Source of the DNA: a virus
Direction: 5' to 3' (one strand)
Virus genome (UHGV): UHGV-0077406
DNA length: 16,665 nucleotides
Part shown: positions 2,997 to 11,870 of the stretch, one piece after another
How positions within the stretch are numbered: position 1 is the stretch's first letter
How the letters are laid out: each line of letters begins with the position of its first letter
The notes under the pieces: model-generated
The model's database searches: none
Told to the model about the DNA's origin: nothing
What the model saw: the letters and a program-made list of their open reading frames with translations, nothing else
Made by a program: the position numbers and the translations under genes

Positions 2997-3380
2997 TCAC
3001 CTCGCCGTCAGTTGTTTTGATTTCCGGTAGCCTGCCGCGTAAATGGCTACGTTTGGAAGACATACACCAGTTTCTGGTTGCCTATGCCCAAACTCATTCG
3101 CGTACACAATGGCCGCTCTCTCCAGATTGCGTCTGTATTCTTTCTGTTGCCAGATCACGTCCTGTGCCATGAACTTAATTGGCTTAGCGTCTTCTATGCG
3201 CTCAGGCGTTTCGTGTTTACCTTTAGCCTGAATCTGTGCCAGACTGAGGGTAGGGCGGTGTAATACTTCTGAACTTATTGCTTCTTCGCGGGCCAGCACG
3301 CCGTTAGCTAATGCCTTTGCCTTTAAACGCTCACGACGACGAGAACGTGAATTGCCTTTGAACTGAGTTCTGCGTGTCAT
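2997..3380 (-). CDS. N: N-family transcription antiterminator (non-lambda specificity)
   Basis: First gene downstream of pL/nutL; AGGAGG RBS; N-terminal arginine-rich motif 'TRRTQFKGNSRSRRRERLKAKA'; 127 aa. Sequence differs from lambda N, so this gene lies outside the lambda-derived immunity segment. Confidence 0.7.
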   Translation of the reverse strand: MTRRTQFKGNSRSRRRERLKAKALANGVLAREEAISSEVLHRPTLSLAQIQAKGKHETPERIEDAKPIKFMAQDVIWQQKEYRRNLERAAIVYANEFGHRQPETGVCLPNVAIYAAGYRKSKQLTAR

Positions 3381-3545
3381 ATAGACCTCCTGATGAACTT
3401 TGGTGGTGTGGTAGGTGGGAGACCCATTTCGACCTGTTTCGGCCTACTTCAATTCGGCAATAGTCCCGCAGGCCTCGCCGCTTTACGTGCGACATATTCC
3501 CGTCCATGAACCCTTCACCACACCCCAAAGTTCACTTTGGTTATT

Positions 3546-3560
3546 GCGCTTTGTCAGCGC
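3546..3560 (-). promoter_or_regulatory. nutL boxB hairpin (P22-type GCGCUGACAAAGCGC)
   Basis: Minus-strand transcript reads GCGCTGACAAAGCGC, a 5-bp stem with GACAA loop, in the pL leader upstream of N; the same loop type recurs at nutR. Confidence 0.55.
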
Positions 3561-3628
3561 CGTAGATTCATATTCGAATCGTTGTATATTCACCGCCCTG
3601 GTGAGTAGTGCGTCCTGCTGATGTGTTT

Positions 3629-3691
3629 AGTATCACCGCCAGTGGTATTTATGTCAACACCGCTAGAGATAATTAATCACCGCAGATGGTT
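3629..3691 (-). promoter_or_regulatory. pL promoter with operators OL1 (3631-3647), OL2 (3655-3671), OL3 (3675-3691)
   Basis: Lambda operator sequences read directly: TATCACCGCCAGTGGTA, CAACACCGCTAGAGATA, AATCACCGCAGATGGTT. On the minus strand, -35 TTGACA (3652-3657) and -10 GATACT (3629-3634) are spaced as in lambda pL. Confidence 0.85.
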
Positions 3692-3833
3692 ATCTGTATG
3701 TTTTTTATATGAATTTATTTTTTGCAGGGGGCATTGTTTGGTAGGTGAGAGATCTGAATTGCTATGTTTAGTGAGTTGTATCTATTAATTTTCAAATAAA
3801 TACAATTGGTTATGTGTTTTTTTTGGGGGGGTA

Positions 3834-3862
3834 GGCAAAGAAAACCCGGCTCGGTGGCCGGG
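3834..3862 (-). terminator. Rho-independent terminator ending the cI-distal cassette
   Basis: Stem CCCGGC/GCCGGG (6 bp, 6-nt loop) followed on the minus strand by TTTTCTTTG, starting 8 nt after the stop of the 310-aa gene. Confidence 0.6.
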
Positions 3863-3869
3863 TGAGATA

Positions 3870-4802
3870 TTAAAGAACCGATTTAACAAGATGGTTTTTA
3901 CGGTACAGACCTATGCGATCATTGTGAATCTCAGTAGTCTCCACTAAAAGAGAAACAATCTGTCCGACCTTGTGTTTTTTTTGTATTAAATCTAGCATTT
4001 CAATCGGATAGGAAGCCTTTAAATGTTCACCACCAACATCAAGCTCCAGCTTCCCATATTTGGATAGAACGACCAGTTCGCCTGTAACCGTTTCAGTAAT
4101 GGGAGGGGATGAAATGGTTGATGTAAGTCTACTCACCAAGTACTTAATTTTATTGGAGTCAATAGTTGCCACCTTGGTGCCATTACTAAATGGACCGGTC
4201 CAACTTGCATCAAATGTTAAGTTGTGTTTATCGCATTCCTCTACGATTCTCTTAAGGCTTACAGTGGAATTGTATCCAATTTCAGCGACGTGATTCATGA
4301 AGTTGTTGTCGTCATCGCTTAACAACAAATCGAATATGCCTTTTACAGCCTTGCTGGGTACTGTTTCTACTAATTCTGCTATTCCTGTAGAGAAGGTGAC
4401 GCCCAATTTTGTAGACCCAGGGGATAAATCAGCCAGCCTGAGGTTTAAGGAGCTTTTCACGTCGTAGGGAACTTTTTTTGAGTCCTTGCCTGAGGCAATT
4501 TTGTGTGTTGCTCTTTGTATTAGCGCTGCAAGATTTGTTGAAATAGCCCCAAGCAGCTCTAAAGGAATAGAGCCAAAGTCAACCTCAGAGCCTTTCAGCC
4601 GCAGCTCAAAAAAATCGATAAGTGGGTGCCGACTATCTTGCTTTAATTTTTCGGCCTTCAAATCGCTCAGATGAGAATCCATGGAGCGATAAAGAAGCAT
4701 GTCAGCAAAGGACCTGGTTTTGTTTTGCTTCATTGCATCGACTTCTTTTTGAATGAAATCAATGCGTTTATCGCAATTTTTAAACATTGATTTATCATTC
4801 AT
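3870..4802 (-). CDS. Hypothetical 310-aa protein; second gene of the two-gene cassette in the rexAB-equivalent slot (candidate effector or sensor)
   Basis: Long AT-rich ORF; start at 4802 overlaps the stop of the upstream gene as ATGA; no TM segments and no catalytic motif I can recognise; unrelated to RexA or RexB as I recall them. Confidence 0.6.
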   Translation of the reverse strand: MNDKSMFKNCDKRIDFIQKEVDAMKQNKTRSFADMLLYRSMDSHLSDLKAEKLKQDSRHPLIDFFELRLKGSEVDFGSIPLELLGAISTNLAALIQRATHKIASGKDSKKVPYDVKSSLNLRLADLSPGSTKLGVTFSTGIAELVETVPSKAVKGIFDLLLSDDDNNFMNHVAEIGYNSTVSLKRIVEECDKHNLTFDASWTGPFSNGTKVATIDSNKIKYLVSRLTSTISSPPITETVTGELVVLSKYGKLELDVGGEHLKASYPIEMLDLIQKKHKVGQIVSLLVETTEIHNDRIGLYRKNHLVKSVL

Positions 4803-5278
4803 AAAAAAATCCTCACTAACCCTTTCGGGTTTTCACTGCGATCAAAACCAAACCAACCGCGCCAGTAGCTACGCCAGTACTCATAATCATAGTTAGGGTC
4901 ATCTAAATTCTTCATGAGTAGTAGGACATCAATTTTGTAGTTTTGTTTGATGTAGTTTCGGTCAAGCAAATTATCGACGCGGCCCCGAAGCATGACAGGT
5001 ATTGAGTTTATATTGCTATAGTCACATACCAACAAAATATCAATATCATCAGGCTCTGGTTTAGACGTGGTGTATGAACCATCAACCCATATTTCTGTAA
5101 AACAGCCATATTGAGCAGATAATTCTCGAATAGATTCGAGTAGCTGTATAAAATTACAGTATAGCATGCCTCGCCTGGATGATGAAGGAAAGCAATCGAC
5201 ACAATACGATTTTAATCCAGCTTCATCCATGTCATGGAACCCTGGCTCAAACAGGGGTGGGTAATTAATTTTATCCAT
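4799..5278 (-). CDS. Minimal pol-beta-superfamily nucleotidyltransferase (MNT/SMODS-like), 159 aa; first gene of the cassette
   Basis: Signature 'VDGSYTTSKPEPDDIDILLV' matches the hG[GS]-x9-Dh[DE]h NTase motif, with a possible third acidic residue in 'LLLMKNLDD'; Cys-rich N-terminus; co-oriented with cI and 149 nt downstream of its stop. Confidence 0.6.
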   Translation of the reverse strand: MDKINYPPLFEPGFHDMDEAGLKSYCVDCFPSSSRRGMLYCNFIQLLESIRELSAQYGCFTEIWVDGSYTTSKPEPDDIDILLVCDYSNINSIPVMLRGRVDNLLDRNYIKQNYKIDVLLLMKNLDDPNYDYEYWRSYWRGWFGFDRSENPKGLVRIFL

Positions 5279-5427: not shown

Positions 5428-6144
<717 letters not shown>

Positions 6145-6908: not shown

Positions 6909-7055
6909 ATGACAAAACAACTCAGTCCTTACCAGGACAAAATTCACAAACACATACTACGTGATCGCTTCCTGTCCAGCTTCAAGCAGCCTGGTCGATT
7001 CCGGGCTGAGTTGGAAAAAGTGAAGCTGATGCAGAAGGAGAAAGGTCATGAGTAA
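6909..7055 (+). CDS. Small hypothetical protein (48 aa) between cII and O
   Basis: ATG at 6909 with AGGAGT RBS; product '[48 protein letters not shown]'; 3' end overlaps the O start codon. Below the ORF-track cutoff. Confidence 0.35.
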
Positions 7056-7908
7056 TCTTGCAACCGTAACACATTTAAGGCCTTCACAACGGCCTGTGGA
7101 GCGTCGTGTGGCAGAAGTTGAAGATGGTTATACCCGTCTTGCAAATGCCCTGTATGAAGAGCTTATCGGCGCAGATTTAACAAAAAATCAGAGTAAGGTT
7201 GCCCACGCCATATGCCGTAAAACATACGGATACGGTAAAAAGATGGATCGCATCTCTGATAGTCAGTTAGCTCAAATTACCAGGCTGCCAAGACAGAAGG
7301 TAAACAAGGCCAAGAATGAGCTTATCGCGATGAAGGTAATCCTTCGCGAAGGCCAGCAAATCGGGCCTAACAAGAACATCGAGGAATGGCAAATCGAAGG
7401 GTGTCACTACTCTGGTGATAATGTCACTGCATTGGTGACAAAAAGTGTCACCAAAACGGTGACAGCGCTGTCACCAAAACAGGGACACACAAAAGAAACT
7501 ATTACAAAAGAAAAAAGAAATAATAAAAACACTATGTCCGAAAGTGTTCGGACGGAGTGTGAAAAATCATCTGACCGTCACGAAGAAACCGACAAGGCAT
7601 TCGAGGAAATATTCTGGTGTGCAGGCATGCGGAAAGCCGGGAAGAAAAACGCAGCTTCGGCATTCAGAACACAGTTCAGGGAATGGCGTAAAACTACCAG
7701 GGGTACGGCAAGCGAGTTTGCCACGATGCTGGCAGAAGACATCGCATGCAGGAATGGTAAGCAGTTCGGATTCGACAGGTTGTTACCATCGAGCTACCTG
7801 AACGGTCAACGCTGGAACGACGAAAAGCCAGAAACCATTCAACCACAATCCAAACCATCATCCGCAATCACCGTATCGAAAACTGGCTACGTGTTTTTCG
7901 ACAGGTGA
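7048..7908 (+). CDS. O: Replication initiator O (lambda O-like N-terminal domain)
   Basis: N-terminal region ('[14 protein letters not shown]...[40 protein letters not shown]...GPNKNIEEW') parallels lambda O; GAAGGAG RBS; origin iterons lie inside the gene. Confidence 0.85.
7401..7530. repeat. Replication origin: four iteron-like TGTCAC(C)...GGTGACA repeats followed by an AT-rich tract
   Basis: Repeats around 7401-7420, 7421-7439, 7445-7465 and 7466-7489, each with internal dyad symmetry, then an A-rich stretch 7490-7530; same architecture and intragenic placement as lambda ori. Confidence 0.6.
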
Positions 7909-8015: not shown

Positions 8016-10922
8016 ATGACGCCAAGTGAACTTAGCGACCTGCTTTGGGCGCAGGTTGACAGGGTGGCTCCGCACCTGTTGCCAAACGGCAAGAAAGAGG
8101 GGCATGAGTGGGTTGCCGGTAACATCAACGGTGACAAGGGAAACAGCCTTAAGGTCAACCTTAGCGGCAAGAAAAAATGGGCTGATTTCGCCGAGGGAGA
8201 CGGCGGTGACATGCTTGATTTGTGGATGGCATGTCGTGGAATTAACCTGCATCAGGCTATGCAGGAAGCGAAAGCATTTCTCGGTATCAAGGATGACGAT
8301 CACCATTTCGATGCCAGACGTGAGAAAAAATTCTCCAGACCTGATCGCAAGAAAATCGCCCGCTACGTTACCAGAACAGAATCCCATCTTGAGTACCTGC
8401 AATCGCGTGGCATATCGCCAGAAATCGTAAAGCGCTACGAGGTTGTCAGCGGCAAGGTGTGGAATGGAGAGCGGGAACTGGATGCTCTGGTGATTCCGTA
8501 CAAACGCGATGGTGAGTTGTTGCAGGTCAAGCGAATCAGCACTGAGCGCCCGGACGGGAAGAAAGTCATTATGGCAGAAGGTGATTGCGAACCTTGCCTG
8601 TTCGGATGGCAGGCTCTGGACGCTGGCGTGAGGGCGGTTGTGCTTTGCGAAGGCGAAATTGATTGTATGAGCTATGCGCAATACGGCATCTCGGCGTTAT
8701 CCGTGCCGTTTGGTGGCGGGAAAGGCGCTAAGCAACAGTGGATTGAGTTTGAGTATCACAACCTCGACAGGTTTGAGGAAATATTCATCTCGATGGACGT
8801 TGATGATGTTGGTCGTGAAGCCGCAAGGGAAATCGCAAGCCGACTCGGTGAACATCGTTGCCGTCTTGTTACTCTGCCGTACAAAGACATCAACGAATGC
8901 CTGATGAACGGTGTTACCGAGGATGAAATCTGGCAGTACATCGGCACGGCATCCTACTTCGATCCTGAAGAACTCTACAGCGCGCGAGAGTTTTACCAGG
9001 ACACTATCAACGCTTTCTACGGCAAGCAGCAGTATCTGTTTAATCCACCGTGGGAATCTCTGGCAGATAAATTCCAGTTCCGTGAGGCAGAGTTGACGCT
9101 GGTCAATGGTGTGAACGGTCACGGAAAAGCCTGTCCACTTGATGAACCAATTCTGCTCGCTAATGGTGAATGGACTACTCACGGGGATGTAAAAATTGGC
9201 GATCAGGTGGCATCAGTAGACGGCAATCCGTCAACTGTCACCGGGATATTCCCGCAGGGTGTTAGAGATGTTTACCGAGTCACATTTGAAGATGGTCGTT
9301 ATGTTGATTGCGCAGGCGATCACCTATGGGAGGTCACTAGTCGTGGATTCACGAAAGGCGAGAAGCGCCGCGTGATAGACACCTTCGAGCTGAAACGGTT
9401 GAGTGAAACGAAGAGGCACAAAAATGGCGTCAGGATACCCGAAATAACTGGTGACTTTGGCGACCACTCAGAGCCATTAGCATGGGTTATCGGCTCCCTT
9501 CTCGGGGATGGTAGTCTTAGCAATGGGAGCGTGAAGTTTTCAAACGTCGAGCCATACATGATCGAGCGTATGAAGGCTGAACTGCCTGATTACAACTTTT
9601 CTGGAGATGGTAAGGACTGGCTGATATCAACGGCGCGTGGTCAGGTAAATCCACTCATGGAGACCCTGCGAGTTTATGGACTAATGGGGTGCACAGCAAA
9701 AAACAAATTCATCCCTCGTGTGTTTTTTTCCGCAAACAAATCAACGCGTATAGGAATGCTGTGTGGTCTGCTTGAAACGGATGGTTATGTCGAGAAGGAT
9801 GGAACGCTTGTTTTTTCCTCAGCAAGTGAAGAACTGCGTAATGGGGTTGTTCAACTGGTTAACTCACTCGGCGGTTCATGCCGGACGCGAGTTAAAACTG
9901 GCGTGACATACACATACAAGGGCGATAAGCGGCATGGGATGGATTCATATGAGGCAAGGATACGACTGACAAGGGAAATCAGGGAGGCCATCCGTTCACC
10001 ACGACTCAATGGCAGATTAACTGCGCATCGATTCGAGGGGTGTGGGGTATTCGTCAGGAATGTTGAAAAAATCGGCAATGCAGAATGCTTGTGTATCATG
10101 GTCGATCACCCTCGCCACCTGTATGTAACCAGAGGATATGTGGCAACGCATAACACCGAGGTTGTCGGGCATATGGCGCTTGAGGCAATGCGTCAGGGTG
10201 TGAAGACGTGCATCGCGTCACTTGAGCTGAAGCCTGGTATTCTCCTTAAGCGCCTTACCCGTCAGGCGACGTGCTGCAAGATGCCGCCAGTGCTGGAAAT
10301 TGACTCTGCATTTAAATTTTATGACGAAAGACTTTGGGTGTTTGGCCTGACCGGAACGGCGAAAGCCGACAGGCTGATCGAAATATTCGACTACGCTCGC
10401 CGCCGATACGGGATCCAGTTATTCATCATCGACAGCCTGATGAAATGTGGCATAGGCGACGATGACTATAACGGGCAGAAGGCGTTTGTTGACTCGATTT
10501 GCGACTTCAAAAACAAAACAAACTCCCACGTCATTCTCGTTACTCACTCGCGAAAAGGAGACAGCGAAGAAAAACCAACCGGGAAAATGGACGTAAAAGG
10601 CTCTGGAGCGATAACAGACCTGACAGACAACCTTTTCATCATCTGGCGTAACAAGGCTCGCGAGAGAGCGTTACAGAGAGTTCAGAGTGGTGAAAAGATG
10701 TCAGAGAAGGACGAACAGCTACTGGCATCTCCGGCATCTGTTTTGATGCTTGAAAAACAACGTAACGGCGAAGGTTGGGAAGGTGGTGTCCCGTTGTTCC
10801 TTGACGAGCAATCGCACCAGTTCCTGCAACTTGAATCAGGATCGCCATATAGCTACATCGCCAATATGCCGAAATCGGAATATGACGAGGCGTGGCGACA
10901 GGAAAACGTGACGGAGTATTAA
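8016..10922 (+). CDS. Bifunctional DNA primase / replicative helicase (Toprim primase plus RecA-fold helicase) interrupted by an in-frame intein
   Basis: Toprim motifs ('VVLCEGEIDCMS', 'SMDVDDVGREAA'); helicase Walker A 'LVNGVNGHGK' and Walker B-like 'QLFIIDSL'; 968 aa. A 341-aa intein sits in the P-loop. Occupies the position of lambda P. Confidence 0.85.
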   Translation: MTPSELSDLLWAQVDRVAPHLLPNGKKEGHEWVAGNINGDKGNSLKVNLSGKKKWADFAEGDGGDMLDLWMACRGINLHQAMQEAKAFLGIKDDDHHFDARREKKFSRPDRKKIARYVTRTESHLEYLQSRGISPEIVKRYEVVSGKVWNGERELDALVIPYKRDGELLQVKRISTERPDGKKVIMAEGDCEPCLFGWQALDAGVRAVVLCEGEIDCMSYAQYGISALSVPFGGGKGAKQQWIEFEYHNLDRFEEIFISMDVDDVGREAAREIASRLGEHRCRLVTLPYKDINECLMNGVTEDEIWQYIGTASYFDPEELYSAREFYQDTINAFYGKQQYLFNPPWESLADKFQFREAELTLVNGVNGHGKACPLDEPILLANGEWTTHGDVKIGDQVASVDGNPSTVTGIFPQGVRDVYRVTFEDGRYVDCAGDHLWEVTSRGFTKGEKRRVIDTFELKRLSETKRHKNGVRIPEITGDFGDHSEPLAWVIGSLLGDGSLSNGSVKFSNVEPYMIERMKAELPDYNFSGDGKDWLISTARGQVNPLMETLRVYGLMGCTAKNKFIPRVFFSANKSTRIGMLCGLLETDGYVEKDGTLVFSSASEELRNGVVQLVNSLGGSCRTRVKTGVTYTYKGDKRHGMDSYEARIRLTREIREAIRSPRLNGRLTAHRFEGCGVFVRNVEKIGNAECLCIMVDHPRHLYVTRGYVATHNTEVVGHMALEAMRQGVKTCIASLELKPGILLKRLTRQATCCKMPPVLEIDSAFKFYDERLWVFGLTGTAKADRLIEIFDYARRRYGIQLFIIDSLMKCGIGDDDYNGQKAFVDSICDFKNKTNSHVILVTHSRKGDSEEKPTGKMDVKGSGAITDLTDNLFIIWRNKARERALQRVQSGEKMSEKDEQLLASPASVLMLEKQRNGEGWEGGVPLFLDEQSHQFLQLESGSPYSYIANMPKSEYDEAWRQENVTEY
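9132..10154 (+). mobile_element. Intein with double-motif LAGLIDADG homing endonuclease, inserted in the helicase Walker A loop
   Basis: Begins with Cys ('CPLDEPILLANG'), ends 'VATHN' followed by Thr (+1 nucleophile); two LAGLIDADG blocks ('LAWVIGSLLGDGSL', 'IGMLCGLLETDGYV'); 1023 nt in frame. The N-terminal boundary could be one codon earlier (Ala at 9129), which would restore a canonical GHGKT. Confidence 0.75.
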
Positions 10923-11004
10923 ATGACAATCTACATCACTGAGCTAATAGCAGGGTTATCGTTACTAATGGTTCTTACTGTATATATTATTAAGTATATT
11001 CTTT

Positions 11005-11616
11005 ATGCGAATAAAAAAACCAATTGATCACGATGAGCTTCTGTCAACATTATCATATGACTCAGAAACAGGAATATTTAAATGGCTAAAAACAAATTCA
11101 GTAGTAAGAGTAAAAGGTAGTATTGCTGGAGGTGTTAGTGGTGGTTATATATGCATTAGCATAAATAATGTTTTGTATTATGCGCATAGGCTTGCTTGGT
11201 TCTATGTATACAAAAAATGGCCTCCTAAGTTTATTGATCATGTAAATGGGAACAGACTTGACAATAGGATTTCAAATCTAAGACTGGCAACAGAGGAGCA
11301 GAATGCAAGAAACATTGTAGGTAATAGGTTAAACACATCCGGTGCGATTGGAGTGTCTTGGGATAAGACAACTGGCAGGTGGAAGTCTTATGTTGGTTAT
11401 AAAAATAAGACAATATCGTTAGGGTATTTCGATAGCAAAGAAGATGCAGCATTCATAGCAGCACTAGCAAGAAAGAAACTATATGGAACTTATGCGAGTA
11501 AAGCACTTAATTGCGAGCATGAGCTTTTATCTCAATTTAATAATGATGAGGATAAACTTGCGGAATATCTTAAGGAAAAATCTAAAAGGACTCGAAAGCG
11601 TGTTAAAAAAAGATAA
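11005..11616 (+). CDS. HNH homing endonuclease with C-terminal AP2-type DNA-binding domain
   Basis: HNH core 'YYAHRLAWF...IDHVNGNRLDNRISNLRLATEEQNARN' and AP2-like 'GVSWDKTTGRWKSYVGYKNKTISLGYFDSKEDAAFI'; markedly AT-rich relative to flanks; no obvious SD sequence. Confidence 0.8.
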   Translation: MRIKKPIDHDELLSTLSYDSETGIFKWLKTNSVVRVKGSIAGGVSGGYICISINNVLYYAHRLAWFYVYKKWPPKFIDHVNGNRLDNRISNLRLATEEQNARNIVGNRLNTSGAIGVSWDKTTGRWKSYVGYKNKTISLGYFDSKEDAAFIAALARKKLYGTYASKALNCEHELLSQFNNDEDKLAEYLKEKSKRTRKRVKKR

Positions 11617-11648
11617 AGGCCTGCTGGTAATCGCAGGCCTTTTTATTT
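11617..11648 (+). terminator. Rho-independent terminator after the HNH endonuclease gene
   Basis: Stem AGGCCTGC/GCAGGCCT (8 bp, 8-nt loop) followed by TTTTATTT immediately after the stop codon. Confidence 0.7.
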
Positions 11649-11663
11649 GGGGGAGGGTAAATT

Positions 11664-11870
11664 GTGGCTGAGTTAATTTTCTCTGCATTGAGGATTCTCG
11701 GTGCTATGTGGATGGTGGCGACGTTCATTGTTGTTGCCAGCAGTTTTGTCCGGTTGGTAGGCGAAGGTAAAGACCTGGTGGGTGTGCTTTTCGGTAGCAT
11801 TTTCCTGTGGGTGATTATCGGTGTTATGCCTGTCGCTGTAGCAAAAATGGCGTGGCGTTTTGTGAGTTGA
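11664..11870 (+). CDS. Small membrane protein (68 aa, two predicted TM helices)
   Basis: GTG start with GGGAGGG RBS; hydrophobic segments 'MWMVATFIVVASSF' and 'LFGSIFLWVIIGVMPVAV'. Confidence 0.45.
   Translation: MAELIFSALRILGAMWMVATFIVVASSFVRLVGEGKDLVGVLFGSIFLWVIIGVMPVAVAKMAWRFVS

Follow-up and report, generated by a model that had tools for sequence, protein, structure and literature searches.

The 968-codon open reading frame (ORF) at positions 8016..10922 (+) of UHGV virus genome UHGV-0077406, whose whole 16,665-nucleotide (nt) stretch is referred to here as the window, encodes the primase-helicase of a lambdoid prophage, and its ATP-binding P-loop is split by an in-frame insertion. The inserted element is very probably a class 3 intein that contains a LAGLIDADG homing endonuclease with two motifs. 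A sequence-only reading of the window had placed a full-length LAGLIDADG intein at this site, a proposal supported by the lack of the insert in most orthologues, by matches to inteins in the Protein Data Bank (PDB), by a predicted fold combining a HINT and a LAGLIDADG domain, and by purifying selection. The boundaries it gave, as well as the chemistry it implied, are revised below.

The ORF runs through 968 codons without interruption. Its product carries Toprim_2 at the N-terminus (Pfam, E 7.8e-12) and a P-loop ATPase at the C-terminus; AAA_25 remains below the Pfam cut-off in the precursor of 968 amino acids (aa), and PF13481 and PF03796 are recorded for intein-free homologues. An intein-free allele matches phrog_239, 'DNA primase/helicase', with an E of 1.9e-171. 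The host protein is a T7-gp4-like bifunctional primase-helicase, made up of a Toprim domain and a RecA-type helicase with a Walker A motif.

Alleles of the gene were found by megablast of the ORF against phage records, and the junctions were derived from protein and DNA alignments. Nine phage records match the whole ORF at ~98% identity, among them the Shiga toxin 2 (Stx2) phages phi24B, Min27, Stx2a_F403/F451, Stx2_16002 and phiXuzhou21, as well as the Klebsiella phage phiKp_30. The records of Sf101, mEp043, APC_JM3.2 and ES18 match 65% of the ORF, in two pieces spanning 1881 nt. The intein-free protein alleles (Sf101, ES18 and epsilon34; 626 aa) read GVNGHGK/TEVVGHMALE, where the slash marks the insertion point, and GK/T(S)E stands at the junction in all three as well as in P0010, P0044 and P0120. 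At the DNA level, the short alleles read GGAAAA/ACGGAG and the window reads GGAAAA[GCC TGT ... CAT AAC]ACCGAG, the empty insertion site of Sf101 and mEp043 being GGTGTGAACGGTCACGGAAAAACGGAGGTTGTCGGGCATATGGC.

Since the intein-free alleles read GVNGHGK/TEVVG, the insert comprises 342 aa and starts with Ala (GCC, 9129-9131), and the Cys at 9132 is therefore residue 2. Taking out 342 residues leaves a perfect Walker A (GxxGxGKT), whereas taking out 341 leaves an Ala inside GK[ST]. The Walker A of the primase-helicase is cut by the intein between Lys and Thr (GxxGxGK/T). The sequence-only reading had rightly seen an in-frame insertion splitting the Walker A of the 968-aa ORF, but started it one codon late (341 aa, 9132..10154) and expected a spliced product of ~627 aa, where alignment to intein-free alleles predicts that the product would be 626 aa. 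The one-codon ambiguity it had left at the N-terminal junction is settled as Ala1 by the same alignment. The precursor is divided as follows:

8016..9128, + strand: N-extein, 371 aa, with the Toprim part (Toprim_2) and the first half of the Walker A, ending ...GVNGHGK; colinear with the 626-aa Sf101 and ES18 alleles
9129..10154, + strand: intein, 342 aa / 1026 nt, Ala1..Asn342; exactly the stretch without counterpart in intein-free alleles
10155..10922, + strand: C-extein, 255 aa and stop, with the remainder of the Walker A (T-EVVG...) and the helicase/ATPase domain; AAA_25 below cut-off

A native domain of the family, conserved in all its members, was ruled out, since nearly all of the best 120 homologue clusters in a 5.8-billion-protein collection measure 624-629 aa. 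All three intein-bearing alleles examined have ACC as the +1 Thr codon (10155-10157), where the three intein-free ones (L001, L003, L004) have ACG; this synonymous marker is tightly linked to the intein. Furthermore, a sharp recombination joint at the insertion site was sought in the Salmonella phages, since the megablast matches end at query base 1113. This apparent joint turned out to be mostly an artefact of the intein start, with differences dense on either side of the junction; in the Salmonella phage alleles the C-extein (80% identity) is more diverged than the N-extein (90-92%).

The intein, together with seven extein residues on each side, was modeled by AlphaFold2 from a shallow 8-sequence alignment, with a mean predicted local distance difference test (pLDDT) of 85.4 and a predicted template modeling score (pTM) of 0.87. 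Foldseek against the PDB placed endonuclease-containing inteins on top, namely the TliVMA intein (E 2e-15), PI-SceI (TMq up to 0.74, E 3e-15) and PI-PfuI. The class 3 mini-inteins 6rix, 6riy and 6bs8 cover the HINT part with TMt values of 0.76-0.80, and I-DmoI and the VMA inteins also match the fold of the endonuclease domain. On the predicted structure, the two-domain architecture of HINT plus LAGLIDADG is confirmed. The endonuclease part comprises:

9414..10043, + strand: LAGLIDADG homing endonuclease domain, approximately intein residues 96-305, from Pfam, the PI-SceI alignment and the fold
9507-9509, + strand: codon of Asp127 in motif 1, WVIGSLLGDGS
9780-9782, + strand: codon of Asp218 in motif 2, MLCGLLETDGY

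The Pfam family LAGLIDADG_3 is matched with 31.6 bits against a curated cut-off of 22.5, and matches to Hom_end_hint and Hom_end fall below theirs. HMMER alignment to PI-SceI sets K191 on K301 and D218 on the catalytic D326. The Asp of each motif and the Lys opposite PI-SceI K301 are present, and the domain is intact.

Selection on the intein was assessed by the ratio of non-synonymous to synonymous substitution rates (dN/dS, Nei-Gojobori). The window intein differs from that of phi24B at 39 of 1026 nt and at 6 of 342 residues (D5N, N12D, E14T, V173A, V182G and G265D), with 31 synonymous and 8 non-synonymous changes separating the two. Over the whole intein dN/dS is 0.074, and over residues 96-305, which form the endonuclease domain, it is 0.059. 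The corresponding ratios from the comparison with phiKp_30 are 0.038 and 0.035, and a third pairwise comparison, with 5 differences only, is uninformative. The N-extein likewise has a low ratio, and differences in the C-extein are too few for an estimate. The endonuclease domain is under purifying selection, which fits an active endonuclease and is no proof of one.

The distribution of the intein is patchy. Five of the 120 homologue clusters contain intein sequence: P0006 (Cronobacter malonaticus), P0007, P0009 and the window allele at full or near-full length, and P0008 (Shigella flexneri) in part. Among 5426 complete E. coli genomes the gene is found in 296, of which 79 have the insert, and the intein-bearing strains listed are mostly O157:H7, with some O111. 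A protein identical to that of the window lies on 15 independent contigs. The prophage background of the window differs from phi24B, and the best phage record aligns to 53% of the window. In two distant alleles, P0007 and P0009, the intein matches the window's at 82-84% identity and the exteins at 56-68%; such an excess of intein conservation would be expected if the intein has moved between diverged host genes.

Some points count against a recently mobile element with an active endonuclease. When close alleles are compared, 3.8% of intein nt differ, against 1.4% and 0.3% in the flanks, and this higher divergence does not look like the trace of a very recent sweep. The spread of alleles could partly reflect ordinary module exchange among lambdoid phages, and selection on the endonuclease domain could stem from a need for folding or splicing and not from DNA cleavage. 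The intein-bearing alleles differ at 2-3 of 768 nt in the C-extein and at 16-25 sites in the N-exteins. Over intein residues 1-95, 2 nt separate the window from phiKp_30, and 18 nt separate each of them from phi24B; over the endonuclease part, 5 nt separate phi24B from phiKp_30, and the window is 18-19 nt away from both. This internal mosaicism among the three implies recombination between intein alleles, and the mosaicism and divergence indicate long residence with recombination among them.

These observations also suit a splicing intein whose endonuclease is inactive, one that persists as precise deletion is rare and that spreads passively with the replication module by recombination. Long residence and recombination, suggested by the mosaicism and by the greater divergence of the intein than of its flanks in close alleles, would agree with such a history, as would an intein G+C equal to that of the host gene (~0.50). 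The same is true of the narrow range of intein-bearing E. coli alleles, all of them 96.2-96.5% identical to the window intein and the listed ones mostly from O157:H7. We consider this account possible but rather unlikely, given the low dN/dS of the domain (0.059 and 0.035, from the two comparisons in which synonymous divergence is appreciable), its retention of the two catalytic Asp and of the Lys opposite PI-SceI K301, and the distant alleles from other genera, in which the intein is clearly more conserved than the exteins.

The splicing part of the intein was compared with its relatives and with solved structures. An exhaustive HMMER search of 1.8 billion representative proteins yielded 16,779 relatives and was used instead of an earlier word-indexed homologue search with the intein alone, which had returned 5 matches; residue conservation was counted over the best 149 of them, taken as 50%-identity representatives. 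Solved structures were compared by a sequence search of all PDB chains. The splicing blocks are:

9129..9167, + strand: block A (ACPLDEPILLANG); Ala1 is non-nucleophilic, and Cys2 is clade-specific and predicted not to be the splice nucleophile
9294..9335, + strand: block B (GRYVDCAGDHLWEV), with His65 (B:10) and Trp67 (B:12, codon 9327-9329), the W of the Trp-Cys-Thr (WCT) triplet
10077..10127, + strand: block F (NAECLCIMVDHPRHLYV), with Cys322 (F:4, codon 10092-10094), the predicted first nucleophile
10137..10157, + strand: block G (GYVATHN/T), with Thr340 (G:5), His341, Asn342 and the +1 Thr (10155-10157, ACC)

The class 3 definition is taken from PMC2807308 and PMC7664689; in these inteins an internal block F Cys serves as the first nucleophile, and they are found mostly in helicase-type ATPases, inserted in the P-loop (also PMC5050341). 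The roles of the B:12 Trp in the class (PMC2807308) and of Cys124 in MchDnaB1 (PMC7664689) have likewise been described. Like inteins in general, the window intein has a C-terminal Asn, a +1 Thr and the splicing blocks A, B, F and G, and it shows every sequence-level feature that defines class 3: no Cys, Ser or Thr at position 1, Trp at B:12, Cys at F:4, Thr at G:5 and Ser or Thr at +1. The Cys, Ser or Thr that class 1 inteins have as residue 1 is replaced by Ala1, and Thr B:7 and Asp F:4, typical of class 1 though not strictly required, by Ala62 and Cys322. Features named in the sequence-only reading, that is 'GDHLW', the two LAGLIDADG motifs (LLGDG and LLETDG), the terminal His-Asn and the +1 Thr, are all present; its Cys1, together with the standard class 1 chemistry this implied, gives way to Ala1, the class 3 triplet and a Cys at residue 2.

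The best PDB sequence matches are class 3 inteins, namely 6rix and 6riy (MchDnaB1) and 6bs8 (Msm DnaBi1). The window intein is in register with all three, pairing Ala1 with Ala1, Cys2 with Leu2, HLW with HQW at residues 65-67 and THN with THN. Block F reads ECLCIMVDHPRHLYV, and its Cys322 aligns with the catalytic Cys124 of MchDnaB1. Among the 149 relatives, His65 and Trp67 are invariant, and Cys322 (148), Asn342 (147), His341 and a +1 Thr or Ser (146 each) and Thr340 (145) are kept almost throughout. Of the 149, 111 begin with Ala and 3 with a nucleophile, either Cys or Ser; the insertion is flanked by GK/T or GK/S in 126/149.

Two residues fit the class 3 assignment less well. Cys2 is unusual, as position 2 is Gln or Leu in 135 of the 149 relatives and Cys in one; it is a peculiarity of a small clade, with the Ala-Cys pair common to all four intein-bearing primase-helicase alleles and the nearest paralogue starting Ala-Met. 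The B:7 residue, Ala62, is rare in the family (4/149). In the MP-Be DnaB intein the B:7 residue is dispensable, and it is in this intein that a mutant of the block F Cys and detection of the thiol-labile branched intermediate at block F served to establish the class 3 route (PMC2807308).

A class 1 intein starting at the Cys (9132) would use that Cys for an N-S acyl shift and retain the Ala in the product (GHGK-A-TEVVG). The string 'CPLDEPILLANG' does resemble a canonical Cys-initial block A, three WCT inteins with an N-terminal Cys or Ser are in InBase (PMC2807308), and the Ala-Cys pair is conserved in all four alleles. We nevertheless regard this arrangement as highly improbable. No intein-free allele has an Ala between K and T, so that the product would have an insertion inside GK[ST]. 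Furthermore, the Cys aligns with position 2 of the solved class 3 inteins and of the 149 relatives, where Gln or Leu stands, F:4 is Cys and not Asp, B:7 is Ala and not Thr, and the closest paralogue has Met at the Cys position. From the preferred class 3 assignment it follows that Cys322, and not the N-terminal Cys, is the residue to mutate.

The steps of splicing proposed here are taken from experimentally studied class 3 inteins. The 968-aa precursor would be translated with a broken ATP-binding loop. Cys322 of block F would then attack the Lys371-Ala372 bond, activated by His65 and Trp67 of block B, to give a thioester-branched intermediate, from which the N-extein would pass to the side chain of Thr+1. 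Cyclisation of Asn342 would release the 342-aa intein, and an O-to-N shift would complete a 626-aa enzyme with the native GVNGHGKTEVVG loop, its junction peptide reading ...NGVNGHGKTEVVGHMALEAMR. The free intein probably cuts intein-free alleles site-specifically at GGAAAA/ACGGAG; through recombination, such a cut would enable it to be copied into the empty allele when related phages come together.

That the intein splices is a strong inference, because a P-loop divided between Lys and Thr would disable ATP binding, the catalytic residues are intact, the ORF is uninterrupted and the protein recurs on the 15 contigs. Moreover, splicing must presumably restore the helicase, because neither the infective phage phi24B nor phiKp_30, a Klebsiella phage isolated from sewage, has any P gene or replicative primase-helicase other than the intein allele. 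A decayed, non-splicing insertion that makes the gene a pseudogene in a defective prophage, which partial copies elsewhere (the truncated Shigella flexneri primase inteins of PMC2807308, P0001 and P0008) and a frameshift in the Min27 record might recall, is the least credible account of all in view of the unbroken 968 codons, the complete set of splicing residues, the low dN/dS of intein and N-extein, the identical protein on 15 contigs and the near-identical alleles in infective phages.

Splicing of the class 3 DnaBi1 intein of M. smegmatis is reversibly blocked by oxidation. By analogy, oxidation of the internal Cys322 might reversibly block splicing here as well, with Cys322 lying in a Cys320-Leu-Cys322 motif and the clade-specific Cys2 beside the scissile bond; we hold this to be doubtful, and it is the only reading with some novelty left. 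The Cys48-Cys118 redox pair of Msm DnaBi1 was considered and rejected, as it is not conserved (Val48 in the window intein). If such control did exist, helicase maturation, and with it phage replication and toxin gene dosage, would depend on the redox state of the cell in Stx-type prophages, which oxidative/SOS stress induces.

The surroundings of the gene are those of a lambdoid prophage, with the following features:

Early region, + strand: cro, cII, a lambda-O-type initiator (7048..7908), the 968-codon ORF (8016..10922) and nin-region genes
5428..6141, - strand: S24/HTH repressor
3870..4802 and 4799..5278, - strand: two ORFs adjoining the cI repressor that match the candidate anti-phage defence system PDC-M63
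11005..11616, + strand: 203-aa HNH_3 + AP2-domain protein of the free-standing homing-endonuclease type, directly downstream of the primase-helicase stop

The HNH_3 + AP2 gene lies in a low-G+C island (~10930..11700; 0.32-0.38 against ~0.50 around it) and has no counterpart at the corresponding position in Sf101 or ES18. HK022 and many Stx phages carry a 98% identical gene, preceded there by P, DnaB-like or Ren genes. With this gene beside the intein, the replication module therefore carries two different selfish endonuclease elements. In the immunity region, the 309-aa protein matches PDC-M63B (E 7.6e-45) and the 158-aa DUF6932 protein matches PDC-M63A (E 9.6e-41), and the pair looks like a prophage-borne defence cassette.

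The element itself has already been described, and both class 3 inteins and the P-loop site are known. The intein of phi24B gene P was published in 2012 by Smith et al., with a span of 372-702 and no mechanistic class, and these authors speculated that it regulates the replication protein post-translationally (PMC3430580). It has the same host gene, insertion point (residue 372) and length as the intein of the window and is 98.2% identical to it in protein and 96.2% in DNA; the two are the same element. The inteins of Min27, Stx2a_F403/F451 and phiXuzhou21 are identical to that of phi24B. The novelty implied by the sequence-only reading, including its idea of a regulatory switch, had thus been anticipated by the 2012 report of an intein 98% identical (PMC3430580), and the implied rarity does not hold either, with related inteins in 627 phage records, including a paralogue in ~50 Stx2a phages.

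The allele in the Min27 record (EU311208; L002 3001..5909) measures 2909 nt, compared with 2907 in the other intein-bearing alleles, and the gene is annotated there as two coding sequences, 'P' and 'putative DNA primase'; the 2-nt excess is either a frameshift or a sequencing error in the record. InBase also listed full-length 'EP-Min27 Primase' and Shigella prophage 'ShP-Sfv-5 Primase' inteins. Partial 'ShP-Sfv' primase inteins (e.g. ShP-Sfv-2a) were named by Tori et al. 2010 (PMC2807308).

As a discovery the element is of little consequence: neither the intein nor its mechanistic class is new, and an insertion that parts the invariant Lys from the Thr of Walker A has been called the 'classic' one for P-loop inteins (PMC5050341). 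What is gained is the corrected junction (Ala1; 342 aa; 626-aa product) and a class 3 assignment for the P intein of Stx phages. E. coli has often been described as free of inteins (PMC5050341); as 79 of the 5426 complete genomes carry the intein via a prophage, that label holds for core genes and not for prophages. In addition, the replicative helicase of some Stx2 phages would be inoperative until the intein is removed, offering a possible experimental handle on replication, an idea already in the literature.

The paralogue, a class 3 intein in the DnaB-like helicase (797 aa) of ~50 Stx2a phage records (TL-2011a, Stx2a F578, Stx2_EH1965 and others), is 49.6% identical over the full length and shares the architecture, the GK/T P-loop position and the WCT triplet. 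It differs in its host protein and in starting Ala-Met instead of Ala-Cys. In Stx2_EH1965 (L006 2398..4791) its location is as follows:

~3001..4017: paralogue intein, ARPGMGK/AMALSEG...VTHN/TELA

Two different replicative helicase types of Stx phages thus bear related inteins at the same P-loop position.

Among characterised systems, those close to the window intein include MP-Be DnaB of mycobacteriophage Bethlehem, Msm DnaBi1 of M. smegmatis and MchDnaB1 of M. chimaera. With these class 3 DnaB inteins it shares a non-nucleophilic residue 1, Trp B:12, Cys F:4, Thr G:5, a His-Asn terminus, Thr or Ser at +1 and a helicase P-loop site, at ~30-40% identity in the splicing blocks. The Trp is residue 67 in the Mch and Msm inteins, as in the window intein, and also in that of MP-Be DnaB, an intein of ~341 aa with its block F Cys at residue 320. 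The window intein differs in its host, a gp4-type primase-helicase where these comparators sit in DnaB, in having an endonuclease that the solved class 3 examples lack as mini-inteins, and in its B:7 Ala, its Cys at residue 2 and its Val48 where Msm has Cys48. PI-SceI of yeast VMA1 and the archaeal VMA/PI-PfuI/PI-PkoII inteins resemble it in their overall two-domain fold, with TMq reaching 0.74, and the Asp and Lys of the LAGLIDADG active site can be aligned between PI-SceI and the window intein; they differ in being class 1 (Cys1, Cys+1), in having extra DNA-recognition regions and in an identity of only ~15%.

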